A DNA stretch of 64,000 bases from Bradymonadia bacterium (GCA_046290225.1 JBKAGE010000051.1:12636-76635); one strand, 5' to 3'. Shown: positions 10,122-37,481, numbered from the stretch's first letter. Notes: a model not told the origin generated them from the sequence alone. Made by a program: numbers and translations.

Positions 10122-10180
10122 TTGTCAGACCTCTATAAAAACGCTATCCCACAACGCATTACGATGTGTGGAGGTGTGAT

Positions 10181-14713: not shown

Positions 14714-17008
14714 TCAACGCGCCCGGAAGACCTGGCTTTCCCAGCCGAAGGAGGCGCCACCACCGGTGAAGATGGCGAGGCGGACCTGTACGGGGAGGAT
14801 GTACGACGCGGCGATGCCGTTGAGGCTGTTGCTGTTGATGCTGCTCTGACCGGTGACGATGGAGTTCGCCGCCGTCGTGTGCCAGAGGTAGTGCGCCGAT
14901 GCGGAGCCGCCCTGAGGCCACGAGCCGCTGCTGCCGCCGCACTGCCCGTCCTCACCGGGCGTCAGCAGGAACCACGTGCCGGCCTCGTTCTGGATGTAGA
15001 CCTCGTGGCCGCCGCCGCTGCCGTTCTGGAAGTTGCCGTTGTCGTCGTCCGAGGTGGTGGTCACCATGCGGGTGTCCACGCTCAGCTCGGTGAGCTGGGT
15101 GCGCAGAGCGCTGATCTCGGCGGCGCTGTACGTGGACCCGTTGGCGGGGTTTTCGTACGTCAGGGTCCGGTAGAGATCGTGGCTGCCGTTGGGGGAGCTG
15201 TCTGCAGAGACAGAGCCTTCGCTGATCCAGTCGTAGTGGGTTGCCGAGTCGTCGGCGCATTTCCGCCACGGGTTGCTGCTGTGATACTCGGCGACGATGA
15301 TGTCCTGACTCTCCGTTGTGGAGAGGCGCACCCAGCCGCCGCCGTCGGTGGTCATGTCGCAGTCGACGATGAAGGGATCGACGCCGCCGAGGCCATCAGG
15401 GTCGATGGTGTAGAGGCCGTCGCCGATATTGTCCACGTAGGCGTAAGGCTCTTCAGGGGGGTTGCGGTAGTCGGCGCAGCTGGCGGCGTAGGTGTTGTCC
15501 GCCCACTCCCGAGCGCCCGTGTCGATGTCGATGATGAGCCCGGTCTCGCAGTCCCCAGGCACGTTGGCTTGAGGCGCGAGATCAGCAGCAACGTTGACAC
15601 ACTCACCGACAGTGACGTTGCCGCAGACGCGGGTCTCGCAGGTCTCCACACCGAGCTCGACGCCGGCGCCGATGGTGCTGCCCTCGCCGATGGTGCTGTC
15701 GGGGAACACGATGACGTTGTCCTCGAAGGTCACGTCGTTGCCCACGTCGGCGCCGTCACGGATGAGCACGCCGGCGCCCACAGTGACGTCATTGCCATAG
15801 GTGCTGCGAGGCCACAGGCGGCTGTTGTCACCCATGTTGAAGCCGGTGCCGATGGTGACCTGCTCGTCGATGATGCAGTCGAGCCCCACAGTGGCGCCGT
15901 CACCAACGTTGCTGCGGAACAGGACCACGCTGTTGGCGCCAATGGTGCTGTTCGCCCCCACGGAGGCCCCGTCGTACACGGTCACGTTGCCCATCAGCTG
16001 GGTGTTGGCACCGATGTTCGAGAAGAGGCTGATGGTGGATCCGGTGTGCATGCGCGCGCCATCACCGACGATGCTCTGGTTGCCGGCGAAGGTGTTGTCG
16101 TCGAGGGTGACGTTGTTGCCCAGAGTACCGCGGACCTCGACGTTGGCGCCGAGGGTGACCATGTTGCCGGCGTTGGCTCCGGAGGCCAGCTGAGAGCCGG
16201 CGCCCATCATGAAGTCGTCGCCGATGGTGTTGTAGTTGTGCAGCGTGCTGTCGTTGCCGAGGGTGGCGCGGTGGCCAATGAGGCTGTTGGGTCCGATGAT
16301 CACCCGCTCGCCGGCGATGAAGTCGTCACCGGCGGTGGTGTTGCTGGCGATCTGAGTGCCGGTGCCGAGGGCGGCGCGATCCCCGATGATGGTGTTCGAG
16401 CCGATGTTGGTGTTGTCGGGTACGGTGCCGTCAGCCCCGATGCGCGCCAGGGCGCCGAGATCGACGTTGTTGCCGATGGCGGTGTCGTCGCCGATGACGA
16501 CGTTGTTGCCCACGGTGCTGTTGGCGCCGATGGTGACGCCACTGCCGAGCTGTACGCGGATGCCCACGGAGGTGCCTGCGCCGATGCCGACGTTGTCGCC
16601 GATGACGGCGGCGTTGCCCACAGAGGCACCGAGGCTCACGGTGCTGCCGGCGCCGATGGCGGCGGAGCTGCCCACGTTGCCATTGACCACGCTGCCCATG
16701 CCGATACGGGCGTTTGATCCCACGACGCCGGTGGCACCGATGATGGCGCCGAGCTCGACCTGAGCGCTGGCATCGATGGTGGCATCAGGGCTCACACAGT
16801 CATCGCCGAAGCCGTCGCCGTTGTTGTCCACCTGGTCGACGTTGGACACGGTGGGGCAGTTGTCGACATCATCACAGATGGTGTCGCCGTCTTCGTCTGC
16901 ACACTGGCCCTGTGCCCAAACGCTGGTGCTTACACACATCGTGGCCATGAACACACTTCGGCTCATCCATCGCTTCATCGGATTACCCATCGCTACGTTT
17001 GCCTCCAT
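14714..17008 (-). CDS. Secreted TSP3 + long left-handed beta-helix (hexapeptide) + fibrinogen-like head protein
   Basis: Signal peptide ending VWA; DEDGDTICDDVDNCP (TSP3); about 400 aa of [IVL]Gxxxx hexapeptides; YTIDPDG...CDMTTDGGGW. True start may be 16990 or 16978. Confidence 0.85.
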   Translation of the reverse strand: MEANVAMGNPMKRWMSRSVFMATMCVSTSVWAQGQCADEDGDTICDDVDNCPTVSNVDQVDNNGDGFGDDCVSPDATIDASAQVELGAIIGATGVVGSNARIGMGSVVNGNVGSSAAIGAGSTVSLGASVGNAAVIGDNVGIGAGTSVGIRVQLGSGVTIGANSTVGNNVVIGDDTAIGNNVDLGALARIGADGTVPDNTNIGSNTIIGDRAALGTGTQIASNTTAGDDFIAGERVIIGPNSLIGHRATLGNDSTLHNYNTIGDDFMMGAGSQLASGANAGNMVTLGANVEVRGTLGNNVTLDDNTFAGNQSIVGDGARMHTGSTISLFSNIGANTQLMGNVTVYDGASVGANSTIGANSVVLFRSNVGDGATVGLDCIIDEQVTIGTGFNMGDNSRLWPRSTYGNDVTVGAGVLIRDGADVGNDVTFEDNVIVFPDSTIGEGSTIGAGVELGVETCETRVCGNVTVGECVNVAADLAPQANVPGDCETGLIIDIDTGAREWADNTYAASCADYRNPPEEPYAYVDNIGDGLYTIDPDGLGGVDPFIVDCDMTTDGGGWVRLSTTESQDIIVAEYHSSNPWRKCADDSATHYDWISEGSVSADSSPNGSHDLYRTLTYENPANGSTYSAAEISALRTQLTELSVDTRMVTTTSDDDNGNFQNGSGGGHEVYIQNEAGTWFLLTPGEDGQCGGSSGSWPQGGSASAHYLWHTTAANSIVTGQSSINSNSLNGIAASYILPVQVRLAIFTGGGASFGWESQVFRAR

Positions 17009-17068
17009 TAGGTCTGATGTGTGTGAAGGTAGCTTATTTTGAGTGGGGGGAGAAGATGGGATTTTTTA

Positions 17069-17112
17069 AGAGAGTTTCGGGCACGGGCACGGGCACGGGC
17101 ACGGGCACGAGT
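17069..17112 (+). repeat. (CGGGCA)5 array with conserved flanks; G-quadruplex-type motif
   Basis: AGAGAGTTT-(CGGGCA)5-CGAGT; near-identical copy at 40005-40049. Confidence 0.9.
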
Positions 17113-17126
17113 TTTACGGATGTGGG

Positions 17127-17389
17127 CAGTGCAGCCTGAGGCTGCATGTCTTGGAGCGAGTGGAGGTTGGCGTAGCCGGCCGGAGGGAGCGGAAAGACAC
17201 CCGGAGGGCTGTCCACTGTTTGGCCTGACAGTGCAGCCTGAGGCTGCATGTCTTGGAGCGAGTGGAGGTTGGCGTAGCCGGCCGGAGGGAGCGGAAAGAC
17301 ACCCGGAGGGCTGTCCACTGTTTGGCCTGACAGTGCAGCCTGAGGCTGCATGTCTTGGAGCGAGTGGAGGGCGGCGCAGCCGGCTCTAC
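17127..17389. repeat. 102-bp tandem repeat (~2.5 copies) with REP-like palindrome
   Basis: Units start at 17127, 17229 and 17331; each contains TGCAGCCT-G-AGGCTGCA; the minus strand of the array end reads GTAGAGCCGGC. Confidence 0.9.
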
Positions 17390-17481
17390 TGAATGTTGTG
17401 TATCGCTCCAATGGGCTATCACTCAAACACCCAAAGTCGCCATCCAGAAAACAGAAACCCACATCAGGCCGAGCCCGCGGA

Positions 17482-17638
17482 GAGGCGGAGGCCCCGGTCG
17501 TGGTTGACTGCGGCGTGAGGCGTGGTGGCTGGGTGGTGATTCACCCGCAGGCGATGCTGGAAGCATCGTCGAGGAGGGAAGCGCCGGCCAGACGCCGCGC
17601 ACCGCGCCGCAGGCGACCGCGAACGGGGCCGGAGCCTC
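17482..17638 (+). repeat. Rod-like hairpin element, copy 3
   Basis: GGCCCCG / CGGGGCC, TCGTGGTTG / CGACCGCGA (G.T), CTGCGGCG / CGCCGCAG. Apical CCGCAG-GCGATGC-tggaa-GCATCGT-CGAGGA (17545-17575). Confidence 0.8.
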
Positions 17639-17646
17639 GGAGCCCA

Positions 17647-19215
17647 TCAATGCCGGAAGTGGCGTGCTCCCGTGAACACCATGGCCAGGCCCAGGCGGTT
17701 TGCGGCCTCGATCACCGCCTCGTCGCGGATCGAGCCACCGGGCTGGATGATGCTCGTCACACCTGCCGCCGCTGCGGCCTCTACCCCATCAGGGAAGGGG
17801 AAGAATGCGTCAGAGGCCAGGGCTGCACCTTGCGCCTGCTCGCCAGCGCGCTCTGCCGCGTGGCGGACTGCGTCCACCCGGTTTGTCTGGCCGCCGCCGA
17901 TGCCCACCGAGGCCATCACTCCGCCGCCGAGGGGGCGGGCGATCAGGATCGCGTTCGATTTCACATGGCGGACCGATTGCCAGGCGAAGGCCAGTGTCGC
18001 GTACTCAGATGCTTCTGGGGCGCGCTCGGTGACCACCTTCCAGGCGGCGCGATCGCTCGGGCGGTGATCCGCCTCTTGTACAAGCATACCGCCGGGGATC
18101 GCGCGGAGGTCGAAGCCGTCGAGGGGGCTTGGGCGACGGCCTTCCAGAGGGCGCATTACGCGGCAGTTCTTCTTCTTGCGGGCCAGCATCGCCAGGGCGC
18201 CTTCTGTGAACGAAGGCGCTGCGATCACCTCGACGAAGAGCTTGCCCACCGCCTCGATGAAAGACTCGTCCACCGGACGGTTCACGGCCACGATGGAGCC
18301 GAAGGCCGACACTGGATCACTTGCCAGAGCGCCCTTGAAGGCTGAGACCGTGTCCGGGCCCGTCGCCACGCCACAAGGGCTGTTGTGCTTCACGATGGCC
18401 ACCGCCGGGCCCTCGAAGCCGAAGGGGATCGGCCAGGTCGCGGCCAGATCGAGGGCGTTGTTGTAGCTTAGGGCTTTCTCGCCCTGCACCATCTCGAAGT
18501 ACGGCGTGCTCCCCGCCGGTCGGTACACCGCGCCGTGTTGGTGGGGGTTCTCGCCGTAGCGCAGGGTCTGCACCTGCTCGAGGGCTACATTGATCACTGG
18601 GGGCAGGCGTTCAGTTGTGTCCTCGGCCACCGTCGAAGCCATCCAGGTAGAGATCGCCGCATCGTAGGCCGCCGTGTGGCGGAACGCCTTCAGGGCCATC
18701 TTGCGGCGGAAGGCCACCGAGCGGTCATCGTTGGCCTCGAGGCGCAGAGTCGACAGCGCTGCGTCGTAATCTGCTGGATCACACAACACCGTCACTGACT
18801 CGAGGTTCTTCGCCGCGGCGCGCAGCAGGGTCACCCCACCGATGTCGATCTGCTCGATGGCCTCTGCCTCCGTCACACCTTCTCGAGCGATGGTGTCCGT
18901 GAAGGGATAGAGGTTGCAGACCACGAGATCGATGGGGGCGAGCCCGTAGCGCTCGAGCTCACCGAGGTGCTCTGGCGTGCGGCGGGCCAGCAGGCCTCCG
19001 TGGACCGCTGGGTGCAGTGTCTTTACCCGGCCACCGAGCATTGGGGGAAAGCCTGTGAGATCATCCACCGAGATCACGTCGAAGCCGGCGGCGGCGAGGG
19101 CCTTCGCCGTGCCCCCTGAGGCGATCAGCTCGAAGCCCAGCGCGTGCAGGCCGGCACCCAGGGTCTCGATGTCGGTTTTGTCGTAGAGGCTCAGTAGAGC
19201 GCGGCGAGCGGTCAT
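17647..19215 (-). CDS. purH: Bifunctional AICAR transformylase / IMP cyclohydrolase
   Basis: Start MTARRALLSLYDK overlaps the purN stop; GGRVKTLHP, IDIGG, LRYGENPHQ, KHNSPCG, ASDAFFPF, RHFRH. Confidence 0.97.
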   Translation of the reverse strand: MTARRALLSLYDKTDIETLGAGLHALGFELIASGGTAKALAAAGFDVISVDDLTGFPPMLGGRVKTLHPAVHGGLLARRTPEHLGELERYGLAPIDLVVCNLYPFTDTIAREGVTEAEAIEQIDIGGVTLLRAAAKNLESVTVLCDPADYDAALSTLRLEANDDRSVAFRRKMALKAFRHTAAYDAAISTWMASTVAEDTTERLPPVINVALEQVQTLRYGENPHQHGAVYRPAGSTPYFEMVQGEKALSYNNALDLAATWPIPFGFEGPAVAIVKHNSPCGVATGPDTVSAFKGALASDPVSAFGSIVAVNRPVDESFIEAVGKLFVEVIAAPSFTEGALAMLARKKKNCRVMRPLEGRRPSPLDGFDLRAIPGGMLVQEADHRPSDRAAWKVVTERAPEASEYATLAFAWQSVRHVKSNAILIARPLGGGVMASVGIGGGQTNRVDAVRHAAERAGEQAQGAALASDAFFPFPDGVEAAAAAGVTSIIQPGGSIRDEAVIEAANRLGLAMVFTGARHFRH

Positions 19216-19853
19216 GAGGTCGACTCCTCGAACAGGTTCTCTTGAACATGGTGGGTCGTCGCCAGAGCCTTGGCGACGGCCTCGACCAGGAGACGGTGCT
19301 CGACAGTGCGGATCTGTCCCTCGAGGCCTTTGAGGGTGATGCCGCGAAAGACCGGCACCGTCTCGGTGCAGAGGGTGGGCCCGGCGTCGACCTCGGGCAC
19401 CACGTAATGCACCATCACACCCGTGTGATCGATTTGCTTGCGTTGGGCGGCGGCCCACGCGCGCTCGATGGCGTGGGTGCCCGGGAACGCTCCGGGCAAG
19501 GCCGGGTGCAGGTTGATCACGCGCTGAGGGAAGCGATCCAGAAAGGCCACGCTCAGGATGTGCATCCAGCCAGCGAGCACCACCAGATCTGGCTGGTGAC
19601 TGCTCACCAGTCGCGCCAGATCTGCGTCGTACGTGCTGCGGCCTCTGCCGTCCTGTGTGTACGGCTTCATGGGCATGTACTCTGTGGGGAGTCCCGCTGC
19701 CTCGGCCCGTTTCAGGCCATAGGCGCCTCGGCGATTGCTCACCACCACTGCGATCTCGGCGTCGAGGGTGCCGGTCTCGATGGCGTCGATGATCGCCTGC
19801 AGGTTGGAGCCGTTGCCCGAGATCAACACCGCAAGTCGTCTGCGGGGGGTCAT
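19212..19853 (-). CDS. purN: Phosphoribosylglycinamide formyltransferase
   Basis: ISGNGSNLQA, LAGWMHIL, NLHPALP, GVMVHYV. Confidence 0.96.
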   Translation of the reverse strand: MTPRRRLAVLISGNGSNLQAIIDAIETGTLDAEIAVVVSNRRGAYGLKRAEAAGLPTEYMPMKPYTQDGRGRSTYDADLARLVSSHQPDLVVLAGWMHILSVAFLDRFPQRVINLHPALPGAFPGTHAIERAWAAAQRKQIDHTGVMVHYVVPEVDAGPTLCTETVPVFRGITLKGLEGQIRTVEHRLLVEAVAKALATTHHVQENLFEESTS

Positions 19854-19866
19854 GCGTGTTCTCCGT

Positions 19867-19917
19867 TCACTTGAGCAGCACAGTCATTTCAGAAGCACGG
19901 TCATTTCAGAAGCACAG
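19867..19917 (-). repeat. Triple 17-bp repeat of the purD-purM 3' end (VLLK-stop)
   Basis: Minus strand reads CTGTGCTTCTGAAATGA CCGTGCTTCTGAAATGA CTGTGCTGCTCAAGTGA. Confidence 0.85.
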
Positions 19918-22300
19918 GGGGATGATCCCCCCGGGGGATGATCTCGGCCACGACGGCGCCGTCGAGGCGGGCCCCGGGAGCCCCTCGGCCTGCGGCCATC
20001 AGAGTGCTCACAGTCTGTTGCCGATCAGCTGCATCGACGATGACCAGCATACCCAGACCCATGTTGAAGGTTCGGGCCATCTCGGCCTCCGAGATCTGGC
20101 CCAGGCTCTGGAGCAGCTCGAAGAGGGGGGGCACCTGCCACCCGTCGGGCTTGAACTTCATGGTCACACCCTCTGGCAGAATGCGGGGCGGATTATCGAG
20201 CAGGCCACCGCCGGTGATGTGCACTAGGCCCTTGGGGGTGACACCTGCCGCGATGAGGGCTTTGATCTCGTTCAGATAGCAGCGGTGGGGGGCCAGCAGG
20301 GCCTGGCCGAGGGCGGAGCCCAGGGTGGGCTCCATGCGGCGTAGATCGCGATCGGCTACGAGGGCTCGGGCGAGCGAGTAGCCATTGGTGTGCAGCCCCG
20401 AAGAGCCGAGGGCCACCACCACATCGCCCACTTCGATGGTCGCCCCGTCGATGATGGCCTCGCGCTCCACCTGGCCCACGATCGTACCCGCGATGTCGAG
20501 CTCTCCGTCGCAGTACACCCCAGGCATCTCCGCCGTCTCGCCGCCGAGCACTGCGCAGCCCACAGCACCGCACGCCTCGGCGATGCCCTGCACCACCTCG
20601 GCCACCTGCTCGGGCACCAGCTTGCTCGCAGCGACGTAGTCCAAGAAGAAGAGAGGCTCGGCCCCCTGCACGAGGATGTCGTTGATGCAGTGGTTCACCA
20701 GGTCGTAGCCCAGTCCTTTGAGCTGGCCCATCTGCGTAGCCACTCGGGTCTTCGTGCCCACGCCGTCGGTGGAAGCCACCAGCACCGGGTGACGCATGGC
20801 CTTGAGCGAGGCGCCGTCGTAGAGGCCACCAAAGGCGCCGACGCCGGCGAGCACCTCGGGACCATGGGTGGCGCTCACTGCTGACTTCATGAGGGCCACC
20901 GCCTGGTGCCCGGCGTCGATGTTCACCCCCGCGTCGCGGTAGGTCACCGGTCGACGTGGCCCCTTGCTGAGCTGGGGGGGTCTCGAAGGGCCACCACCGA
21001 TGTCGCTGCGCCACTGCACGCCGTCGAAGAAGATCGCCCCGAGGCCTGCGTAGGCGCGGTCGAGGGCCTCTGTCAGGTGGGTGCCGATGCCTGTGATGGC
21101 CAGCACCCGACCACCGCTGGTGAGCACCTGATCCGACACCACGCGAGTGCCTGCGTGGAACGCCTGTACATCAGGCAGACTCTCCAGATCGGAAAGTCCG
21201 TGAATCGGGTGTCCTGTGTGAGATTTTGCCGGGTAGCCCGGACTCGCCGCCACCACCGTCGCCGCGAAGGCATTACGCCACTGCAGGTCGATCTCGTCGA
21301 GGCGCCCGTCGAGGCACGCTTCGAAGACCTCCACCAAATCAGAGGCCAGGAGCGGCAAGATCACCTGGGTCTCCGGATCTCCGAAGCGGCAGTTGTACTC
21401 CAGGACCTTCGGGCCATCGACGGTGAGCATCAGGCCGACGTACAAGATCCCCACATAGGGGCAGCCCGCATCGGCCATGCCCTGCAGGGTGGGTGTGAGG
21501 ACGGCCTGCTCGATCTGGGCGAGCTGGCTGCTGCTGAGTACGTCTGCAGGGGCGAAGGCCCCCATCCCGCCAGTGTTGGGGCCCTCGTCGCGATCTTTGA
21601 GGCGCTTGTGGTCTCGGGCGAGGGGCATCACCTTTGCCCGGGTGCCGTCACAAAACGCCAGCACCGAGATCTCGGGGCCGTAGAGGCGCTCTTCGAGCAG
21701 CACGGTGTCACCCGCGTCTCCAAAGGCCCGCTGGTTGAGGATCAGATCGAGAGCAGCCTCTGCTTCATGGCGGTCTTTGGGGATGATGACGCCCTTGCCT
21801 GCAGCGAGGCCCGAAGCCTTCACCACCAGAGGAGAGGCGGTGTCGTGCAGGAACGCCATGGCCTCGTTGAAGTCACTGAAAGACCACGCCCGACCTGTGG
21901 GGATGCCTTGAGACTGCATGAAGCGTTTGGCGTAGGCCTTCGAGCCCTCAAGCTGAGCCGCCGACGCCGTGGGACCGAAGCAGCGCAGCCCCGCCTCGGC
22001 GAAGCGATCGACGATGCCAGCCACCAGAGGGGCTTCCGGGCCCACCACCGTGAGATCGATGGCCTCTCGCTGAGCGTAGGCCAGCAGGCCGTCGAGATCG
22101 GTGGCCTTGAGGTCGACGTTGACGATGGGGGCCTGCTCGGCGCTGCCAGGGTGTGCGGTGCCGCCGTTGCCCGGGGCCACGTGGATCTCCGCGGCCTGTG
22201 GCGAGTGCGAAAGGGTCCAGGCCAGGGCGTGCTCTCGTCCGCCGCCGCCCACCACGAGGATCTTCTTTGTCTGCGCGTTTGAGATCGTCTGCACTGTCAT
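19901..22300 (-). CDS. purD-purM: Fused GAR synthetase (PurD) - AIR synthetase (PurM)
   Basis: Start overlaps the purF stop. PurD motifs GGGGREHAL, VGPEAPL, GPNTGGMG, EYNCRFGDPE. In the same frame, PurM motifs YRDAGV, TDGVGTK, GGETAEMPG, SSGLHTNGYSL, HITGGG, TFNMG. Confidence 0.95.
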   Translation of the reverse strand: MTVQTISNAQTKKILVVGGGGREHALAWTLSHSPQAAEIHVAPGNGGTAHPGSAEQAPIVNVDLKATDLDGLLAYAQREAIDLTVVGPEAPLVAGIVDRFAEAGLRCFGPTASAAQLEGSKAYAKRFMQSQGIPTGRAWSFSDFNEAMAFLHDTASPLVVKASGLAAGKGVIIPKDRHEAEAALDLILNQRAFGDAGDTVLLEERLYGPEISVLAFCDGTRAKVMPLARDHKRLKDRDEGPNTGGMGAFAPADVLSSSQLAQIEQAVLTPTLQGMADAGCPYVGILYVGLMLTVDGPKVLEYNCRFGDPETQVILPLLASDLVEVFEACLDGRLDEIDLQWRNAFAATVVAASPGYPAKSHTGHPIHGLSDLESLPDVQAFHAGTRVVSDQVLTSGGRVLAITGIGTHLTEALDRAYAGLGAIFFDGVQWRSDIGGGPSRPPQLSKGPRRPVTYRDAGVNIDAGHQAVALMKSAVSATHGPEVLAGVGAFGGLYDGASLKAMRHPVLVASTDGVGTKTRVATQMGQLKGLGYDLVNHCINDILVQGAEPLFFLDYVAASKLVPEQVAEVVQGIAEACGAVGCAVLGGETAEMPGVYCDGELDIAGTIVGQVEREAIIDGATIEVGDVVVALGSSGLHTNGYSLARALVADRDLRRMEPTLGSALGQALLAPHRCYLNEIKALIAAGVTPKGLVHITGGGLLDNPPRILPEGVTMKFKPDGWQVPPLFELLQSLGQISEAEMARTFNMGLGMLVIVDAADRQQTVSTLMAAGRGAPGARLDGAVVAEIIPRGDHPPVLLK

Positions 22301-23820
22301 TCGCCCTGAATCTGTTCGAAGGCCAGTTTGCTCTGATCGTCCGAGGTCAGCGCCTCGGGGATCTCGATGGGATAGTGTCCGGAGAAGCAGGCGCTGCAAC
22401 GCCCGGAGGGCTGAGCCGGATCGAGAGGCAGGGTGGCCGACATGAGGCCCTCGTGGCTCAAGTAGGCCAGGCTGTCGGCGCCGATGTGGGCCCTGATCTC
22501 TTCGACGGTGTGCCGGTGTCCGATGAGCTCGGCGTGGGTGGCCATGTCCACCCCCATGAAGCACGGGTGCTTCACTGGCGGTGACGAGACCCGCACGTGC
22601 ACTTCCGAAGCGCCACCCTCGCGGATCAAGTTCACCAGGGGGCCTACGGTGTTCCCGCGCACGATGGAGTCGTCTACCAGGACCACCCGTTTGCCCTCGA
22701 GATTGGCCCGGAGGGGGTTGTACTTGAGCTTCACCCCGGTGCGCCGCAGGCGGTCATCGGGTTGGATGAAGGTGCGCCCGATGTATCGATTCTTCGTGAG
22801 CCCCTCGGTGTAGGGGATCCCCGAGGCCTGGGCATAGCCGATGGCCGCTGGCGTCGCGGAGTCGGGTACACCCACCACGACGTCGGCTTCGACGGGGGCT
22901 TCGGCCCAGAGCTGAGCGCCGAGGCGCTGCCGCACGCCGTGGATGCTCTGCTCCTCAAGGGCGCTGTCGGGGCGAGCGAAGTAGACATATTCGAAGACGC
23001 ACAGGGCCCGGCCCTTGGGGGCGCGCCCCTCGAAGCTCTCGAGGCCCCCGTCGCTGATGCGCACGATCTCGCCGGGGTGCACCTCTCGGATGTATGTGGC
23101 GCCGATGGTGCCCAGCGCGCAGGACTCCGAGGCGATTACGTGGCCTCCGCCAGGGAGGGCACCCACACACAGAGGCCTCAACCCCAGCGGATCTCGCACC
23201 CCGTAGACCCCGTCTCGGGTGAGGACCACCAGAGAGTAAGCCCCAGCGGTCCGGGCCATGAAGGCCTTGATGCGGGCCACCCAGTCGGGGCCGTGGGGCT
23301 CACCGCCTGCGGGCGGCACCGCGAGCATCTGAGTGATGACCTCGCTGTCGGAGGACGAGGTGAGGCCGACCCCGCGCTCCAGCAGCTCTCGTCGCAGCTG
23401 AGGGGCATCGGTGACGTTGCCGTTGTGGGCCACACCGAGGGGGCCGTGCAGCGTCTCGAAGACGTAGGGCTGAGTGTTGCGCAGCTTGGGGCTGCCCGTG
23501 GTGGAGTATCGGGTGTGTCCGATGCCCAGGTGTCCTTCGAGGGGGGACAGGTTCTGCTCGTTGAACACCTGCGTCACCAGGCCCAGCCCCCGCTGAATAT
23601 ATGCCCGTTGCCCGTCACTCGTGGCGATGCCAGCGCTCTCCTGGCCGCGGTGCTGCAGGGCATAGAGCGCAAAGAAGGTGGTCCGGGCCACGTCGCGATC
23701 CCGGGCGTAGATGCCAAAGACCCCGCAGGCCTCCCGAGGGCGATCCAACGTGTCGTCCAGAAGGTCTGGTGTGGGCTGGTCGCGCAGCCAGGTCTCGCGC
23801 AGTCGATCGTGCGGGCTCAT
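22297..23820 (-). CDS. purF: Amidophosphoribosyltransferase
   Basis: EACGVFG, LQHRGQESAG, GHTRYSTTG, VDDSIVRG; C-terminal CSACFSG Fe-S-type Cys. Confidence 0.97.
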   Translation of the reverse strand: MSPHDRLRETWLRDQPTPDLLDDTLDRPREACGVFGIYARDRDVARTTFFALYALQHRGQESAGIATSDGQRAYIQRGLGLVTQVFNEQNLSPLEGHLGIGHTRYSTTGSPKLRNTQPYVFETLHGPLGVAHNGNVTDAPQLRRELLERGVGLTSSSDSEVITQMLAVPPAGGEPHGPDWVARIKAFMARTAGAYSLVVLTRDGVYGVRDPLGLRPLCVGALPGGGHVIASESCALGTIGATYIREVHPGEIVRISDGGLESFEGRAPKGRALCVFEYVYFARPDSALEEQSIHGVRQRLGAQLWAEAPVEADVVVGVPDSATPAAIGYAQASGIPYTEGLTKNRYIGRTFIQPDDRLRRTGVKLKYNPLRANLEGKRVVLVDDSIVRGNTVGPLVNLIREGGASEVHVRVSSPPVKHPCFMGVDMATHAELIGHRHTVEEIRAHIGADSLAYLSHEGLMSATLPLDPAQPSGRCSACFSGHYPIEIPEALTSDDQSKLAFEQIQGE

Positions 23821-23821
23821 C

Positions 23822-24874: not shown

Positions 24875-26294
24875 CGGAAGGCCCCTCGGCCGATGCAGAG
24901 GTCACGAGCAAAGCGGCGATGTGACGAGCGCGCTCTGGCGCGTCGCCGACATAGTCATCAGCGTTGAGGCAGCCTCGGGCTTCAGCCTCGCTCAAGAGCG
25001 AGGTCACTCGCGCGTCGGTGCACAGCGTATCGGCGAGGTTGTGGGTGCCAGTCTGTCGGACCTCAGCCCAGGCGGCGAGGGCGTGCTCCCGGATCACCTC
25101 GTGCAGCACCTGGCGATCGCCGCCGCGCTTCACCGCCTCCATGAGCAGGCGCTCCGTGGCGGCGAAGACCCCGTAGTGATCCATGAGACGGGCCGTGGCG
25201 CCGGCGTCGACCCGGAGGCCGTCGATGAGCCGGAAGGCCCGCTTGAGCAGCTCGTCGGTGATGAGGCAGGCCTCCGGCAACACCGTGCGGCGGTTGGCGC
25301 TGTCGTCGAGCGTACGCTCCAAGAGGCTGTGGGCGGCGTTGTCCCAGGTGACCCGGGGCAGAGCGGCGAGCAGGCGGGCCAGGGAGTCCATGTTCTCAGC
25401 GTTGATGGGGTTGCGCTTGAAAGGCATGGCGCTCGACCCGATCTGCCGCTTGCCGAAGGGCTCGGCCCACTCACCGATGGGCGGGCTCTGGAGCAGCCGC
25501 AGATCGAAGGCGAATTTGTAGAGGCTCTGGCCGAGGCTCGCCAGCGTGCTGATCACGCGGTGATCCTGCTTTCGGGCATACGTTTGGGTCGCCACAGGCA
25601 TGGCCTCGATGCCCAACTGCCCCATGACGATGTCTTCGAGCTGCGCCGGGGTGATGGCCTTGCCCTCGAGCAGCTGATGATACGACGCCGCCGTGCCCAC
25701 GGCCCCTTTGAACCCCTTGCCCCTGATCTGATCGCGCACCCGCTTCAAGTCGTCGTAGTCGACGAGCAGATCGTACCCGTACTGTGCGAGGCGATAGCCC
25801 AGTGTGGTGGGCTCTGCAGGCTGCAGGTGGGTGAAGGCCATGGTGGTGGTGTCGGCGTAGGTTTCAATCTGTGCCGCAAGCCGGATCATGAGGGTCTCGA
25901 GCTTGCCGAGCAGCAGGTCGAGGGCATCTCGTAAGCGCACCGCGTCAGCGTTGTCCTCTACATCCATGCTGGTGGCCCCAAGATGGATGATGCCGCCGCC
26001 CACGGGGCACTGCTCGGCGTAGGTGTGCACCTCGGCCATCAGATCGTGTCGCAGCTCACGCTCGTGCTCTTCCGCCCGAGCGAGATCGATGTCGTTCACG
26101 TGGGCGGCGAGATCGGCCACCTGGGCTTCGGTGACGAGGCCCGCCTGCTGTTGCGCCTGAGCCAGAGCCACCCAGACACGACGCCAGAGACGGTGTTTGT
26201 GGGCCTGGCTCCACAGCGCACGCATCTCGTCGCTGCCATATCGCCAGGTGAATGGGGAGAGGTACCGCTCGTGATCGAAGGACGGTCCGGTCAT
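24867..26294 (-). CDS. purB: Adenylosuccinate lyase
   Basis: HDLMA, IHLGATS, FTHLQPA, GSSAMPFKRNP, ERTLDDSANRR; start taken at MTGPS. Confidence 0.95.
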   Translation of the reverse strand: MTGPSFDHERYLSPFTWRYGSDEMRALWSQAHKHRLWRRVWVALAQAQQQAGLVTEAQVADLAAHVNDIDLARAEEHERELRHDLMAEVHTYAEQCPVGGGIIHLGATSMDVEDNADAVRLRDALDLLLGKLETLMIRLAAQIETYADTTTMAFTHLQPAEPTTLGYRLAQYGYDLLVDYDDLKRVRDQIRGKGFKGAVGTAASYHQLLEGKAITPAQLEDIVMGQLGIEAMPVATQTYARKQDHRVISTLASLGQSLYKFAFDLRLLQSPPIGEWAEPFGKRQIGSSAMPFKRNPINAENMDSLARLLAALPRVTWDNAAHSLLERTLDDSANRRTVLPEACLITDELLKRAFRLIDGLRVDAGATARLMDHYGVFAATERLLMEAVKRGGDRQVLHEVIREHALAAWAEVRQTGTHNLADTLCTDARVTSLLSEAEARGCLNADDYVGDAPERARHIAALLVTSASAEGPSDG

Positions 26295-26520
26295 GGGGAT
26301 GCTCGTCGAGATCGGGCCCCCAGACACTGGGCAGAGATCAGGACGCACGTCACCGCTGAGCAGACGTCGCTGATTTCAGGCCTGGGGCGAGTGTGAGTAG
26401 GAAGCGGGTCGCGTTCCGGAAGGTCGGGGAGTGCCACTTGGCGGCTCCTCAGCGCGTGCGCTGGCCGGTCGCAAGGCGTGAGACCCTACGCCCTGAAAAG
26501 GCGAAACGCAAGGCACAGAA

Positions 26521-26538
26521 CTGTGACAAATGTCACAG
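26521..26538. promoter_or_regulatory. Perfect CRP-type box (TGTGA-N6-TCACA)
   Basis: CTGTGACA-AA-TGTCACAG palindrome in the divergent purB / lipoprotein intergenic region. Confidence 0.6.
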
Positions 26539-26666
26539 CGTGACCCATGAGACACGTGCCCGACACAGGGGCTCGGAACCGCTGAAAATGGACCATGAGC
26601 GTGTGGCATCGAGGTTGCTGAAAAAGGCGTTGAAGAAGGAGTGGAAACACAGGATAGGGACTCCAA

Positions 26667-27119
26667 ATGCCGACGTTCAGATATGCTTCCGTGCTGTATG
26701 TGCTCTGGGCCTTCAATACGGGCTGTATGAAGACCAGCCAGTACCGGCCTGCTCAGAAAGGCCGGGCCTACCTCTATGTAGAGCAGAGCCGGCTGGCGGT
26801 CTTCAAAGACAATGTCAGCTACGGCAGCGACAACCTCACACAGGCCTTCAGCTGTGACGGGGCCACGGCGAGCCGCGGGTTCACCGCTCAGACCTCCATC
26901 AGCGATGGAGAGAAGACTCTGCAGACCGCCAGCATGATCAACGTGCTGGGCATTCTGTTGCCGCCCCTGCTCGCAGTGTCACCCTACTTCATCATCAAGG
27001 GCAGCAACGCGCTGGACGCCGGCCAGGCCGCCCTCGTGGACGCCGTCAACATGCACAACGACGCTGAGTCGTGTTTCAGCGCACATGATGCTGTCAGCCA
27101 GGTGGAGGGTCGGCGATGA
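26667..27119 (+). CDS. Hypothetical lipoprotein / membrane protein
   Basis: NTGC lipobox-like; hydrophobic segment; shares DAVNM(H/Y)xD..C with the next gene. Confidence 0.65.
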   Translation: MPTFRYASVLYVLWAFNTGCMKTSQYRPAQKGRAYLYVEQSRLAVFKDNVSYGSDNLTQAFSCDGATASRGFTAQTSISDGEKTLQTASMINVLGILLPPLLAVSPYFIIKGSNALDAGQAALVDAVNMHNDAESCFSAHDAVSQVEGRR

Positions 27120-27646
27120 GACGCTTGGGCATGCGATTTGGGATCATGATGGTGTGTGCCGCGTTGACCATGGTGGGGTGTGGTGGGGCCCGATCGAGTT
27201 ACACACCACAGCACAATGCCCCAGGAGAGCTGAGGTGGTCATACGCCGATCAGCGCCTCGAGGTGTTTCAGGGCGATCGTCGAGTGGGCCGCGTGGGCGA
27301 CTGGTCCGATCTCGATGCCGCTGTGGGGTGTGTGCCCGAGGCGGGCGTCCTCGCAGCCTCTGCAGAGTCGAGCGGTTCATTTGGAGAGGTGATGGGCATG
27401 GCGAGCATCGCCACCCTGGTGGGGAGCAGCGCCTATGGGGTGTACGGCGTACTCGATGACGACACCGACAACGATCTCAGCGCTCTGGCGGTCATGGGGG
27501 GTGGTCTGCTGATCGGCCTGGGCCTCGCCCTCGTGGCTGTGGATCAGCAATCGTCGAGCACGCGCGACGCGGTCGACGCCGTGAACATGTACACCGACCG
27601 CCACCGCAGCACTGCGGCGTGTCTACGACGAGGCCCTCTCGAATAG
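27116..27646 (+). CDS. Hypothetical lipoprotein / membrane protein (paralog of the upstream gene)
   Basis: MVGC lipobox; two TM segments; DAVDAVNMYTD; overlaps the upstream stop. Confidence 0.7.
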   Translation: MRRLGMRFGIMMVCAALTMVGCGGARSSYTPQHNAPGELRWSYADQRLEVFQGDRRVGRVGDWSDLDAAVGCVPEAGVLAASAESSGSFGEVMGMASIATLVGSSAYGVYGVLDDDTDNDLSALAVMGGGLLIGLGLALVAVDQQSSSTRDAVDAVNMYTDRHRSTAACLRRGPLE

Positions 27647-27872
27647 GGCGGGTAGAACATATCAATGTGCCGGGTGACGCATCCGGGTCATGACCCACCC
27701 CTCCTAATGCTTCTGCTTCTTCTGCCGTAACAGTAGGTGTCCGCAGCGATGAATTCGTCACTCGTCGCTCGACTGTTTCCACTGTGTCCATCTGTGCCGC
27801 CTGTGATCTTCGAGAGATCAGAGTGTCTTCCTGTGTGTGTCGGCGGCGATGTGTGTTGAAGAGAGGTGAGCC

Positions 27873-28775
27873 ATGAAAGCATCCAAGACTCTGATCTGTT
27901 CCGGCGCGTTGATGACCTCGCTGTGCCTTGCAGGCTGCGGTGAAGGCACCCCCGGCATCTGGGGTGGCCCGATGAGCCAGGATGCGCCCCCCATCCCTGC
28001 GGCACCCGGTGCCTACAGCTCTGGGCAGACCGATGGCAGCCCTTCCGGCGGGGCGGCACCACAAAACGCCGGCGGGTTGATCTCTGGCGACTGGGTGCCG
28101 GTGACGCCTCAAGCACAAGGCAGTCCCTTCGTGCAGGGCAGTGATGATCGCATCGACCCCGCGGCGCTGACGCCCGTGGAGTATGCAGGATACGACTGGG
28201 AGGTCACCGAGCTCGGCGACAAGCCTGCGGCCCCTGGGGATGCGCCGAGCCTGGCCCATGGAGATGTGTGCACCTTCGATCTCAACGCCCTCGCCCATGG
28301 ATGCGAGACAGGGCGCGAGGTGGCCTGCGTCGTAGGCGACAAGTTCGACGCGATGTTCCCCGACGGCCTCAAGTTCGAGGGCGCTGACGGGAGTTTCGAG
28401 TTGACCAGCGCTGGGGCGATGATGGCTGCCTTGCCCCCTGAGGGCAGTTTTGGCCCTGCTGACGGTCACGTTTCGGATCCCGATGCCAAGTCGGCGAACC
28501 CCCTCGCCATGCAGCTGGCCATGGTCTACGTCAACTTGGAGATGAGCGCTCAGGGCATCGCCGGCCGTACGCCGCTGCAGTCCGTGAGGCGGACCCATGG
28601 TCCCTTCGAAGGGTGGACGTACAGCGCCATCGCCGAGACGGCCAGCCAGGCCATCACCGGCGACGACGATGTGCTCGATGCGCTCGGCATCGACTTCGAC
28701 AAGCTCGGTGAAGAGCTCGCCATCCTCAATGTCGCCGCTCAAGGGTGCGCGCCTTCCGACATGATCGAGCGCTGA
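27873..28775 (+). CDS. Hypothetical lipoprotein
   Basis: GAGG RBS; LAGC lipobox. Confidence 0.7.
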   Translation: MKASKTLICSGALMTSLCLAGCGEGTPGIWGGPMSQDAPPIPAAPGAYSSGQTDGSPSGGAAPQNAGGLISGDWVPVTPQAQGSPFVQGSDDRIDPAALTPVEYAGYDWEVTELGDKPAAPGDAPSLAHGDVCTFDLNALAHGCETGREVACVVGDKFDAMFPDGLKFEGADGSFELTSAGAMMAALPPEGSFGPADGHVSDPDAKSANPLAMQLAMVYVNLEMSAQGIAGRTPLQSVRRTHGPFEGWTYSAIAETASQAITGDDDVLDALGIDFDKLGEELAILNVAAQGCAPSDMIER

Positions 28776-29210
28776 GGAGGGTTTTTCGCCGCAAAACACA
28801 AAAAATATTCACCCTCTTGTGCCCACCTGTTGTGCGACGCGCACATGGGCGGGTCTCACCCGAGCCCTCACAGCTCTGATCATCCTCCACTGATCCTCCT
28901 GCCTGCCCCCTGTGGTGCACCTCTGAGGTGCATCGCCAACCTGCCTCATCGCCCTCAGCCCTACCCCTCGATGATGTGTCCCGAATAGATGTCGAGATAC
29001 ATGTGGCCGTGCGTCGTTCGCTCAGGGCCGCACACCCTCACTCTCTGACCTGTAGGTAAAGAAATACCTTTTGCGAGACATGGGTTTACCGCAATAGGTT
29101 TCTCCCCGTTCTCGAGGCCTGAACCCGTCGTCCAACGGGTCGGCGCCCCGAGATGCCACTGCATACACGTTGTTGTTCGACTTACGTCACAGAGAAGGGA
29201 GAGGTCTGTC

Positions 29211-31106
29211 ATGAGGTTTACTTCAAACGCACAGGTTCGTCTTGGGCTGCTCACCAGCGCGATGTTGGGTGTACCTGCCCTGGCCAGCGCCGACATCCAC
29301 GAGACCGCCATCATCGAGGAGGGGGCCGTCGTGGCTCCAGATGCCGACATCGGGGCCCACGCCTATATCGCCGCAGGCGCTGTGATTCGTCCCGGTGCGT
29401 CAGTGGGTGTCCGCGCTCGGATCGAGTCAGGCGTCGTCATCGGCGAGCACAGCATGCTCGCCGACAATGTGCATGTTCAGAGCAGTGCGATGGTGGGGTA
29501 CGCCGCTCAAGTGGGCAGTGGCTCGGTCTTGGAAGAAGGCGTGATCTTCGATGATGGGGTGACCCTGGGCTCGGGCGTGCGTGTCGGTGCCTACAGCATG
29601 GTGAGTCATGGCGTTGTCATTGGCAGCAACACCGCCCTCGGCGATGGGGCCTGGTTGGGGGAAGGCGTCTACATCGGCCCCAACGTGAGAATGGGGGCGT
29701 GGGCGCTCCTCCAAAATGGCGCTTTCATCGAGACCTACAATCACGTGGGTGATCGGTTCACCCTCGGGCCTCAGGCACAGATGCGCTATGGGGCCACGGC
29801 AGGTCACAGCGTCACTGTGGGCGCCGAGAGCATCATCAAAGGGGCCCTCGCCGACTCTGTGTACGTGGGCCCATGGGCGAGGATCGGCAACCAGACCAAA
29901 GTGGGCCGAGGCGCGATCCTCGGCTCGGACGTGCGCACAGGCATCTTCGTCACCATCGAGCCTGGCGCCGCGCTCGGGTCGAGGGTGACGCTCGCCGAGA
30001 GCGTCACCGTAGGGCCGAACAGCGAGATCGGTGACGATTGCACGCTCGGCAGCAGCGCTCAGATCGGCGCGGGCACCCGCCTGGGCGAACTCTGTGAGAT
30101 CGGCAACTCGGTGCGGATCGCACCAGGCAGCCAGGTGGGCGCAGAGTGTACCTTCAAGTCTCGGAGTCGCATCGATGATGGTGCCCTCATCGGGGACAGG
30201 GTGATGATCCGGGAGCGCACACGTCTGGGTGCCGGGGTGATCATCGGCAACGACGTCGACGTCTACCCCGACTCCACCATCGGTGATGCCGCGACCCTCG
30301 CCAGCGGGATCATCCTCGGTGCAGCCAATTGTCGGACCCACACCTGTGGCCAGGTGAGGGTGGGGGCGTGCAGCGAGATCGACGAGAGCATGCCGCGGCG
30401 GTCGGCCACTGCCGACGAGTGCACCGACGGCAGCAGCCCGGAGCGTCCTGGGCGCACCTGCAAGATCCTGCTCGACGAGGGGGAAACCGAAGATGGCATG
30501 TACTGGCTGGATCCTGACGGTACAGGCCCCGTGGAGCCGTTCTCTGCCTGGTGCGACATGCACACCCATGGCGGTGGCTGGACCCGAGTCACGCCGCGCA
30601 TCGCTCGAGATGTCTTCTTGCAGGGCGCCATCCACAACAACACCTCCTGCAGCGTGGCGCAGTGGGCTGGGGATCACCTGCACTTTGGTGAGGTGGGCAA
30701 CTGCGAAGACGGCACAGATGTCGTCTACAACTTCGTACTGCCTTTCACCTATCGACAGTTCTACCTGGACGGGTTCATGGTGGCCGATGGGGACAATGAC
30801 GGCAGCTGGACGATGGGGTCGGTGAGTCACATCAACGACATCTCCTGGGGCCCTACCCCCAGCGGCCAGGGCTACGGTGACATCGCCTTCGGCACCATCG
30901 ACCAGGACACACCCACCACCAGTTTCGGTGCCGCAGGCTTCCCCGGTGACGCGCTGTGCCCTGGATGCACGGCGGCTTTTCCTGGCAATGCGCACATCTT
31001 TGAACTCGACGCCGAGAGCCAGAGCTTCGCCATCAAGGCCCATGCCCCGGCAGGATCCCACACCGATCTCTTCGTCTGGACGAAGGGGTACATTCTGTTC
31101 AGATAG
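29211..31106 (+). CDS. Secreted long left-handed beta-helix + fibrinogen-like head protein
   Basis: Signal peptide ending ALASA; about 365 aa of hexapeptides; GRTCK..GMYWLDPDG...WCDMHTHGGGW. Confidence 0.85.
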   Translation: MRFTSNAQVRLGLLTSAMLGVPALASADIHETAIIEEGAVVAPDADIGAHAYIAAGAVIRPGASVGVRARIESGVVIGEHSMLADNVHVQSSAMVGYAAQVGSGSVLEEGVIFDDGVTLGSGVRVGAYSMVSHGVVIGSNTALGDGAWLGEGVYIGPNVRMGAWALLQNGAFIETYNHVGDRFTLGPQAQMRYGATAGHSVTVGAESIIKGALADSVYVGPWARIGNQTKVGRGAILGSDVRTGIFVTIEPGAALGSRVTLAESVTVGPNSEIGDDCTLGSSAQIGAGTRLGELCEIGNSVRIAPGSQVGAECTFKSRSRIDDGALIGDRVMIRERTRLGAGVIIGNDVDVYPDSTIGDAATLASGIILGAANCRTHTCGQVRVGACSEIDESMPRRSATADECTDGSSPERPGRTCKILLDEGETEDGMYWLDPDGTGPVEPFSAWCDMHTHGGGWTRVTPRIARDVFLQGAIHNNTSCSVAQWAGDHLHFGEVGNCEDGTDVVYNFVLPFTYRQFYLDGFMVADGDNDGSWTMGSVSHINDISWGPTPSGQGYGDIAFGTIDQDTPTTSFGAAGFPGDALCPGCTAAFPGNAHIFELDAESQSFAIKAHAPAGSHTDLFVWTKGYILFR

Positions 31107-31249
31107 CTCATCGCAGTGTGAACAAAGCGTGAACACACGCTGAGCACTGCGTCAGATATATCGGGGTCGAAGTCATTCTTACTTGCAATGAACGTAGGTC
31201 GTATGTAAGAAACTGCACCCTTTTTGCACACATTGCTCACACTTGGTGT

Positions 31250-31270
31250 GTCAATCTGGTCAATCTGGTG
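31250..31270. promoter_or_regulatory. Possible operator: direct repeat GTCAATCTG x2 in an AT-rich intergenic region
   Basis: 9-bp direct repeat about 60 bp upstream of ATG 31329. Confidence 0.3.
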
Positions 31271-31328
31271 TGTTGCATGTGACTTCATCTGTGGGCAACC
31301 GGTCTGAGGGCCACACAGGAGTAGAACG

Positions 31329-32597
31329 ATGATCCCGACTTTCAAAACCTGGCTGGCCTCTGGCGTCTTCATGGGCACTGTCCTGGCGAGCTCTGCTGCC
31401 TTCGCTGTGTGCACCGGTGGTCCCGATGTCGACGGCGATGGTGTGTGTGACGGCGTCGACAACTGCTTGACCGTGGCCAACGCCGATCAGCTCGACGCCA
31501 ACGGTGACGGCTACGGCGACGCTTGCATCAGCCCTTCGGCCACCATCGCATCCACCGCTGTCATCGCCCCTGGGGCCATCATCGGTCCCATGGTCAACAT
31601 CGGCCCCCACGTGCGCATCGGCGCCGGCACCGAGATCGGCCCCCGGGTGTCCATCGGCATCCGCTCCGAGATCGGCGAGAACGTGGAGATCCTCGCTGAT
31701 GCCTACCTCGGCGACGGGGTGCGCCTCGGCGACGATGTCTTCGTGGGCCTCAACACCAGCATCGAGTGTGGCAGCCTCATCGGCGCCCGCACCCGCATCG
31801 GCGACGACGTCGACATCGGCGGCAACGTCGTCTTCGGAGACGACTCCAAGGTGCTGCCCCGTGCGGTCGTGGGCAGCAACGGCCGATACGGCGCTGAGAC
31901 CTGGGTCGAGTTCGACGCCATGCTCGCCCGCAACGCCTGGGCTGGCGATCGTGCCTACTTTGGCGCAGGCGCACGGCTGGGCGATTACAACCGGGTCGGT
32001 GACGACTTCTTCCTCGGCGATCGGGCTGAGCTGCGTTATGGCGCCTCCGCCGGCAACAACGTCAGCATCGGCGCCGACAGCCTCGTCAAGGGCACCATTG
32101 GCCATGACGTCACCATCGGCGAGTCCGCCAACATCGCCAGCCGCACCGTCATCGGTGACGGCAGCACCCTGGGCCGCAACATCGACCTGGGCCATCGCGC
32201 CACGATCGGTGCCGGCAGCACTGTGGGCTCTGGCAGCACCTTCGGGGAGCGCAGCGCCCTCGGTGCCGACAGCGAGGTGGGTGTGCGGACCGAGGTGGGC
32301 TACCTCGCCACCATCGGTGAGAACGCCGACATCGGTAACGACAACACCTTCGCCAAGCAGGTCGAGGTCGGTGATGACGCCACGATCGGTGAGGCTGGCA
32401 TGTTCCACCGGCGGGCCACCATCGGTGACGGTGTGCGCTTCGGCAACCGCGTCGAGGTGATGCGCGAGGCCTTCGTCGGCGACGAGGTACGCCTCACAAA
32501 CGATGTGGAGATCGGGAGCCGAGCGGCTGTTGGTGGCTGCAACACGCTCAACATGAACGTGCCTGCACACGCCAACGTCAACAACATCTGCCCCTGA
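31329..32597 (+). CDS. Secreted TSP3 + long left-handed beta-helix protein without a head domain
   Basis: Signal peptide ending SAAFA; DVDGDGVCDGVDNC..DGYGDAC; about 350 aa of hexapeptides; ends in a Cys-containing cap. Confidence 0.85.
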   Translation: MIPTFKTWLASGVFMGTVLASSAAFAVCTGGPDVDGDGVCDGVDNCLTVANADQLDANGDGYGDACISPSATIASTAVIAPGAIIGPMVNIGPHVRIGAGTEIGPRVSIGIRSEIGENVEILADAYLGDGVRLGDDVFVGLNTSIECGSLIGARTRIGDDVDIGGNVVFGDDSKVLPRAVVGSNGRYGAETWVEFDAMLARNAWAGDRAYFGAGARLGDYNRVGDDFFLGDRAELRYGASAGNNVSIGADSLVKGTIGHDVTIGESANIASRTVIGDGSTLGRNIDLGHRATIGAGSTVGSGSTFGERSALGADSEVGVRTEVGYLATIGENADIGNDNTFAKQVEVGDDATIGEAGMFHRRATIGDGVRFGNRVEVMREAFVGDEVRLTNDVEIGSRAAVGGCNTLNMNVPAHANVNNICP

Positions 32598-37432: not shown

Positions 37433-37481
37433 CACGCTCTCCTTTGGTTAGATCGTGGCGTGCCTTCGAGTTGAGCGCTTG

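Follow-up and report, generated by a model that had tools for sequence, protein, structure and literature searches.

An exported hexapeptide β-helix stalk with interchangeable terminal domains predicted as a large protein family in a Bradymonadia genome

Hexapeptide β-helices are annotated almost by default as cytoplasmic acyltransferases, and the public relatives of the proteins described here bear such names. A stretch of 64 000 nucleotides from a Bradymonadia bacterium (GCA_046290225.1 JBKAGE010000051.1:12636–76635; 'the window' denotes this whole stretch) raises the question of what such a helix does in three proteins, P0001, P0002 and P0003, that begin with predicted signal peptides and carry TSP3-like or fibrinogen-like modules beside it. 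A preliminary description had proposed a secreted left-handed helix acting as a stalk, with TSP3 feet and fibrinogen-like heads in a ficolin-like design. Our analysis supports the core of that proposal, a predicted exported, non-enzymatic, modular rod of about 10 nm with recognition-type domains. The explanation that we favor, with a probability of roughly 0.6, is a rod of fixed length that is likely to be trimeric along a conserved edge and likely to display interchangeable recognition domains.

The three open reading frames (ORFs) lie where they had been placed and encode 764, 631 and 422 residues. P0001 occupies an open frame at 14714–17008 on the minus strand; its true start is probably Met7 (16990), which has GGAGG 11 nt upstream and agrees with the start of its ortholog P0137, giving a start-corrected gene at 14714–16990. 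By its sequence P0001 is a minimal canonical member of the stalk family. The signal peptide is followed by a TSP3-like Asp/Cys cap (16796–16912, residues 33–71) immediately before coil 1, a hexapeptide stalk of 21 coils with two four-residue register breaks (15644–16777, residues 78–455), a cysteine cap consisting of a CxxxxCG hairpin and a terminal Cys pair (15548–15643, residues 456–487) and a head in which a fibrinogen-like clasp (GGGWT_bact) holds a variable insert (14717–15547), all on the minus strand. P0002 (29211–31106, plus strand) combines a signal peptide, a stalk (29295–30332, residues 29–374), a Cys cap and a GGGW head (30423–31103), the fibrinogen clasp of which contains an insert related to the head of the paralog C83:10156; it has no TSP3-like N-cap. 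P0003 (31329–32597) starts 222 bp downstream of P0002 on the same strand and contains a signal peptide, a TSP3-like cap with profile matches to TSP3/MtsC-like models (31407–31526) and a stalk (31545–32546, residues 73–406) that lacks the C-cap hairpin but retains the terminal Cys pair. Pfam and NCBIfam bear out the differing module content that had been described: TSP3, stalk and head in P0001, stalk and head in P0002, and TSP3 and stalk in P0003.

The stalks of P0001, P0002 and P0003 are 378, 346 and 334 residues long, corresponding to 21.0, 19.3 and 18.7 coils; the earlier count of roughly 20 coils was right, and the earlier length of 350–400 residues holds for P0001 but is slightly high for the other two. 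Position 1 of the hexapeptide is aliphatic in 92–96% of the repeats, compared with at most 49% in 1000 shuffles, and PF00132 dominates all three proteins (136–160 bits). GGGWT_bact (NF040941) scores above its cut-off of 30 in P0001 and P0002 (48.7 and 60.3 bits), and the TSP3/MtsC-like matches in P0001 and P0003 are below theirs. Ten coils precede a common four-residue break at (K/R)G in each stalk, and 24–26 of the 57 residues leading up to it are identical; the paralogous stretches quoted earlier are present. At non-core positions the in-register identity is 0.26 for all three pairs, exceeding that of shifted registers (mean 0.10–0.12, maximum 0.17–0.22), and the stalks are therefore paralogs, though distant ones. 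P0002 and P0003 are divergent members in which the first two coils are missing. A promoter and terminator scan around these two genes gave nothing above shuffled sequences. One 394-nt contig of a biofilm RNA library falls in P0003 with three differences, where DNA carry-over is possible, and short pieces from a marine metagenome are 96–98% identical; neither was used as evidence.

The three genes belong to a family far larger than first noted. The genome (8.58 Mb in 83 contigs) has its closest named RecA sequences in Myxococcales, Bradymonadia and Myxococcota at 77–82% identity, and a search with the stalk returned 52 loci, comprising 41 complete genes and 11 broken at contig ends; nine lie inside 33 kb of contig C35, all on the same strand. 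A module of 423–427 residues, from GxGDAC to the last cysteine, is present in 34 members and comprises, in order, a TSP3-like cap, 21 coils and the cysteine cap. Its alignment is essentially gapless, interrupted by one insert of two residues ahead of the terminal cap, and Cys392, Cys397 and Cys422 are invariant. The TSP3 segment is fused to the first coil as an N-terminal cap and is not the separate foot that had been envisaged; in P0001 its homology suggests that it binds Ca2+. Canonical modules share 36–92% pairwise identity. In the 14 closest pairs among 33 stalks, the proteins differ by 7–11% and fourfold-degenerate sites by 18–45%, which points to selection rather than recent copying; on these sequence comparisons the stalk is kept under purifying selection, and one half-stalk appears to have been recently converted. 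The stalk is borne by 24 of the 30 GGGW-motif ORFs and 20 of the 25 RCC1-motif ORFs of the genome, and several of the remaining ORFs are contig-end fragments.

In the two stalk genes that diverge most, the 5′ end is lost at one and the same sequence of ∼99 nt. This sequence occurs at four contig ends (G000 C49:1–110, C29:4305–4400, the end of C62 and the end of C10) and may be the terminus of a mobile element that inserted into both genes. A separate group of proteins of ∼650–720 residues (P0015, P0149, P0172, P0201, P0210, P0229 and similar), with neither signal peptide nor cap, has long hexapeptide tracts after an uncharacterized N-terminal domain.

AlphaFold2 (AF2) monomer models of the P0001 module and of P0003 are continuous single-chain β-helices with mean predicted local distance difference test scores of 89.7 and 89.6, respectively. 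Each coil of a left-handed β-helix (LbH) rises by ∼4.8 Å, so that 21 coils correspond to ∼10 nm, and the models leave very little doubt that the stalk is a rod of about this length. Its handedness is less uniform. In AF2 the first 186 modeled residues of P0003 superimpose on LpxD (PDB entry 4e75) with a Z score of 28.2 and a root-mean-square deviation (r.m.s.d.) of 1.4 Å for 184 aligned residues (∼10 coils), and the P0003 model in the ESM Atlas aligns with one that is LpxD-like, at a TM score by target of 0.81 over 242 residues; both are left-handed, and the PDB sequence relatives of the stalk are all hexapeptide proteins. The AF2 model of P0001 is right-handed. It is closest to type V adhesins (EtpA, pertactin, Ag43 and HMW1), which also contain a long secreted β-helix, and aligns with EtpA with a Z score of 22.9 and an r.m.s.d. 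of 3.4 Å for 401 residues; against all of the LbH enzymes listed it deviates by 11–13 Å. Unlike the type V adhesins, the stalk proteins have no translocator in the parts scanned, and the structural alignments contain 7–13% identity with no sequence relationship. The accessible part of PMC12775518 reports a bias of AF2 towards the right hand for repetitive β-solenoids, and that of PMC11795689 supports over-confident solenoid predictions, in terms that do not mention handedness. The match to type V adhesins is likely to reflect this reported bias (PMC12775518, in the part available). In view of the bias and of the left-handed second AF2 and ESM models, a right-handed 'mirror LbH' was not adopted; the left hand claimed earlier stands in two of the three models and is highly probable for the family.

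Export was judged by a strict home-made signal-peptide rule. It is passed by 30 of 45 family members, compared with one of 99 LpxA/LpxD-like controls and none of 120 RecA controls, and from these sequence features Sec export is predicted with near certainty. The signal peptides previously assigned to P0002 and P0003 satisfy this rule, and that of P0001 satisfies a looser one. The genome has four secretin loci.

What the stalk carries was assessed by a scan of 27 of the 46 N-terminal and 31 of the 33 C-terminal parts. RCC1 propellers are the commonest N-terminal passengers (11 of the 27, in arrays of up to 4772 residues), followed by fibrinogen-like domains (six), PKD/Ig domains (three), a legume lectin and an esterase, with TSP3 only in five. 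C-terminally, 24 parts are fibrinogen/COLFI-like, one is LamG and six have no Pfam match. In an amendment to the earlier description, passengers occur at both ends. The heads consist of a constant clasp (C...G.Y.IDPDG...CDMTTDGGGW and a final xWxR strand) that encloses unrelated inserts. A near-complete Fibrinogen_C domain (E < 1e-36) is present in three of the 31 C-terminal parts; the P0002 head covers positions 2–49 of the 221 in this profile, and the P0001 head matches GGGWT_bact only. Pairs with stalks that are 83–90% identical carry unrelated heads or N-domains. C54_14065 and C36_160783 have N-domains and stalks with 95% and 83% in common, respectively, but unrelated heads. For C83_10156 and C35_193805 the stalk is 86% shared and the N-domains are unrelated, and C41_93962 and C35_168028 bear heads with 65% in common on stalks that are 52% alike. 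Similarities between parts correlate with Spearman coefficients of 0.21–0.26 over 351 non-independent pairs. Judged from these sequences, passengers are shuffled independently of the stalk at both ends. Giant RCC1-propeller members that end in the stalk are found at L029:1474–17061 (5195 residues), L034:1471–13335 (3954) and L020:1468–12081 (3537). At L014:4307–5485 the C-terminal passenger resembles the N-terminal domain of the gliding protein AgmC (NF047640, 61 bits, below the cut-off).

With the module written out at 18 residues per coil, the residues specific to the family line up along one corner of the helix, reading N, N, N, Y, G, R and then GNQ, IF, YD, LF, DE, WP, RD, FP. In the C-terminal half of P0001 (15698–16135, minus strand) this ladder follows the RG break, with the motifs from GNQ to FP recurring once per 18 residues. 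Over the nine C-terminal coils of 41 sequences, conservation at corner positions 2–4 is 0.93, 0.94 and 0.81, compared with 0.47–0.67 for positions 3–4 of the other faces in the C-terminal half, and nearly all exposed aromatic residues are on or beside the conserved corner. No module column contains His in more than 32% of sequences, and no loop leaves the helix in the alignment or in the AF2 models. A conserved corner with neither His nor protruding loop is likely to be an interface.

From these elements the following mechanism can be proposed. The Sec-exported protein would fold into a hexapeptide rod of ∼10 nm closed by predicted disulfide and Ca2+ caps; three rods would probably pack along the conserved corner, by analogy with the hexapeptide enzymes; and the trimer would triple the heads at both ends and so provide avidity. 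Interchangeable domains held out from the cell would then offer a large repertoire for surface binding. The likely targets are surfaces, glycans or other cells, plausibly prey, an assignment to which we give even odds. It is conceivable, though on balance unlikely, that the conserved edge acts as an assembly code specific to the genome. Because stalks do not vary in length or register, any of the at least 34 canonical ones could then co-assemble into mixed heterotrimers, giving combinatorial recognition on a repurposed enzyme fold. If so, thousands of rods bearing mixed heads at either end would come from 50–100 genes, and separate expansions with different codes would have arisen in at least two Myxococcota lineages.

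Sequences closely related to the module were sought among 1.84 billion protein representatives. Seven proteins from outside the genome (P0132–P0138), perhaps from more than one organism, contain the full module at unchanged length and in exact register with 48–59% overall identity. P0137 is a whole-length ortholog of P0001 (59% identical) and is its sister in the stalk tree, a quick tree with long branches, with a Shimodaira–Hasegawa-like approximate likelihood-ratio support of 100; three of the other six cluster together in this tree and not with their passenger orthologs. For the divergent P0002 stalk, none of 30 relatives matched at 1e-30. A shorter unit of cap and helix was found at 16 loci in records titled Myxococcota, Deltaproteobacteria, Gammaproteobacteria, Dadabacteria, Thermodesulfobacteriota, Vicinamibacteria and Nanoarchaeia, and the domains ahead of it in the 22 proteins scanned include FG-GAP, NHL, LamG, PKD and Ig, among others.

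In a sample of 400 genomes from the phylum Myxococcota, four contained a match to the profile, in each case with shorter helices; because only four candidates were scored per genome, the family is to be regarded as not found in the others, not as absent from them. A closer look gave 98 matches in genome G096 and 67 in G244 (150 candidates scored in each), three in G005 and two in G222, counts that may include a few ordinary enzymes. G096 and G244 represent one genus from another family of the phylum. There, 23 of 26 proteins share a different one-corner ladder (GPE, RK, GRD) with 18-residue spacing at a median identity of 26%, and the passengers include RCC1, fibrinogen-like, CBM96, FG-GAP and Ig domains and one ice-binding domain. 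The expansion is separate from the one described here. A 294-residue ORF in G222 (L073, G222:C355) consists of a lipobox-like signal, cap and helix only, and is a possible membrane-anchored subunit in another lineage. A 2.5 kb contig titled Phycisphaerales (L040) encodes a protein that is 85% identical to a paralog in the present genome and is likely to be mis-binned.

Several observations weigh against the trimeric display rod. In addition to the right-handed model of P0001, its large deviation from the LbH enzymes and the confinement of the left-handed LbH matches of the P0003 model to residues 37–243, P0001 fails the strict signal-peptide rule, P0003 has no passenger domain to display, and much of the canonical ladder is gone from both P0002 and P0003. 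An edge that is invariant over 41 diverged proteins fits a shared outside partner equally well as self-trimerization, and predation is deduced from the phylum only. A MYXO-CTERM-like tail was found by motif test in none of 49 members, no transmembrane segment was found in the family (the highest 19-residue hydropathy is 1.99) and no partner gene recurs among the 226 ORFs neighboring the 52 loci, so that the favored explanation does not account for retention at the surface. This gap keeps alive a different explanation, possible although not the one that we expect, in which the stalk serves as a tag for docking or sorting. Its invariant edge would bind a single shared partner, either a secretion machine, a scaffold in the outer membrane or surface polysaccharide of the cell itself; anchor-less passengers would thereby be exported or retained, and trimerization would be secondary or absent. 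Such a tag would suit a family with no anchor in any member, in a genome in which many other TSP3 proteins end in MYXO-CTERM-like tails at the position occupied here by the helix, and it would suit the outside cap-and-helix proteins, 33 of 58 of which carry the unit C-terminally behind unrelated domains. The ladder, with W, Y and F beside D, E, R, N and Q, may resemble a ligand groove and varies by lineage (Arg versus Phe at module column 336, and Arg-rich in G096 and G244). The lack of a recurring neighbor, however, tells against a dedicated partner, the module is internal in most members of this genome, its occurrence in several bacterial phyla and one archaeal record makes a receptor common to all of them unlikely, and a fixed length of 21 coils exceeds the need of a tag.

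Stacking of the rods, whether by their ends or along their sides, into a curli-like filament or matrix fiber decorated by passengers would give a role to passenger-less members such as P0003 and L058/L073 (with a lipobox-like signal) as core or nucleator subunits, and of the products of the two adjacent genes P0002 lacks the N-cap and P0003 the hairpin of the C-cap; but canonical members are capped at both ends and have bulky terminal domains, which should block stacking, and P0003 keeps the terminal Cys pair, making this arrangement very unlikely. That the stalk is itself a secreted enzyme (an acyltransferase, a γ-carbonic anhydrase or a polysaccharide-modifying groove lined by the D/E/R/W ladder) is suggested by its library and PDB sequence matches, all of which are such enzymes, and by the invariant Asp, Glu, Arg and Trp along one edge. 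The LbH enzymes (LpxA, LpxD, GlmU, NeuO and Cam; PF00132) indeed share the [LIV]-[GAED]-X2-[STAV]-X repeat and the 18-residue coil. The stalk family differs from them in its predicted export, its 19–21 uninterrupted coils, its disulfide and TSP3-like caps and its ∼50 paralogs, a multiplicity between shuffled binding domains that better fits a scaffold. According to the accessible part of PMC3046976, NeuO has seven coils and crystallized LbH acyltransferases carry their catalytic His on a loop that projects from the helix. An acyltransferase active site, proposed earlier as a check, is not apparent in the stalk: the models are continuous helices with no protruding loop, there is no conserved His and no LpxD or acyltransferase accessory domain is present. 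γ-Carbonic anhydrases have three conserved metal-binding His residues, a trio with no counterpart in the stalk, which has no conserved His column. The NCBIfam enzyme scores shown are all below cut-off (for example, NF050158 at 39–42 bits versus 250), and acyl-CoA and acyl-ACP donors are cytoplasmic. We consider an enzymatic stalk highly improbable, and on sequence and models the stalk very probably lacks acyltransferase and carbonic anhydrase activity; it is placed by its sequence in the hexapeptide fold superfamily, outside its enzyme families. Binding of ice by the flat helix faces, as in β-helical antifreeze proteins and as entertained in the preliminary description, deserves next to no credence. 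The faces are regular, one P0001 face has Thr at 52% of position 6 and one G244 relative has an Ice_binding domain as a passenger, but there is no double Thr row or Thr ladder (at most 6% of repeats have Thr at position 4), R, E, W and Y occupy the faces in P0002 and P0003, and where ice binding does occur it belongs to a separate domain.

Among known systems, the closest in organization to the display rod that we favor are the MAT fibers of Bdellovibrio, which the available part of PMC10769870 describes as intertwined three-chain β-helices, 13 of the 21 having an S74 chaperone, with a conserved N-terminal β domain of ∼130 residues that follows the signal peptide. Both are large paralogous families with signal peptides, proteins of ∼1000 residues, a shared fiber and swapped adhesive tips, and that text likewise leaves the surface anchor unidentified for the MATs, in a predatory-type bacterium. 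Unlike the MATs, the stalk family has a predicted single-chain hexapeptide helix as a conserved central part, with both ends variable. S74 had no match in the 58 passenger parts scanned, and nothing corresponds to the N-terminal β domain of the MATs, which were compared by description only, in N-terminal parts that are variable or absent. The family would be a MAT-like mosaic adhesin repertoire on an unexpected scaffold. The likeness to ficolins and other lectins with fibrinogen-related domains is more limited: chains of fibrinogen, MFAP4, tenascin and ficolin are matched by the head profile with E values of 1e-20 to 1e-15, but the stalk is hexapeptide and not collagen. In the two window heads the similarity to the fibrinogen domain is confined to its first ∼50 residues, and an unrelated insert lies between the N-terminal clasp and a C-terminal strand. 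Because the clasp alone is kept, 'ficolin-like' is an analogy only. TSP3/MYXO-CTERM proteins of the MtsC type (NF047638) have the same DxDGDG...DNC...GDAC repeats; in the stalk family the score is below the cut-off, there is no MYXO-CTERM-like tail and the helix comes after the last TSP3 repeat. No description of a secreted TSP3-capped hexapeptide scaffold was found in the literature searched, mostly exclusive of subscription papers and supplements; in PMC9957290 hexapeptide genes appear only as neighbors of ice-binding genes.

If the display rod is correct, the LbH fold would have a second use that is extracellular and structural, serving as a 10 nm scaffold for adhesin repertoires of 50–100 genes in uncultured Myxococcota, with a shorter version in several phyla and one archaeal record. 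It would offer a handle on surface and prey recognition, parallel to but independent of the Bdellovibrio MAT fibers, as well as a natural rigid spacer or oligomerization module.

Other features of the window lie around these genes. Directly upstream of P0001 (17078–17432) are a 102-nt tandem repeat, with two identical copies and a third at 61%, and a (GGCACG)n run. A purine-biosynthesis cluster with no evident link to the family lies between P0001 and P0002 (17647–26348, and also 36143–38279); its genes, recognized by eye, we take to be PurH, PurN, a PurD–PurM fusion, PurF, PurC, PurB, PurA and PurQ. On the other side of P0001, DUF4331 is split across two overlapping ORFs at 10166–11718 (profile positions 2–112 and 252–421), and 11740–13494 on the minus strand encodes a predicted lipoprotein of 584 residues with no Pfam or NCBIfam match, the C-terminal part of which contains CYIGCGSVAWGM and later H and W motifs that may be reminiscent of papain-like C10 proteases.

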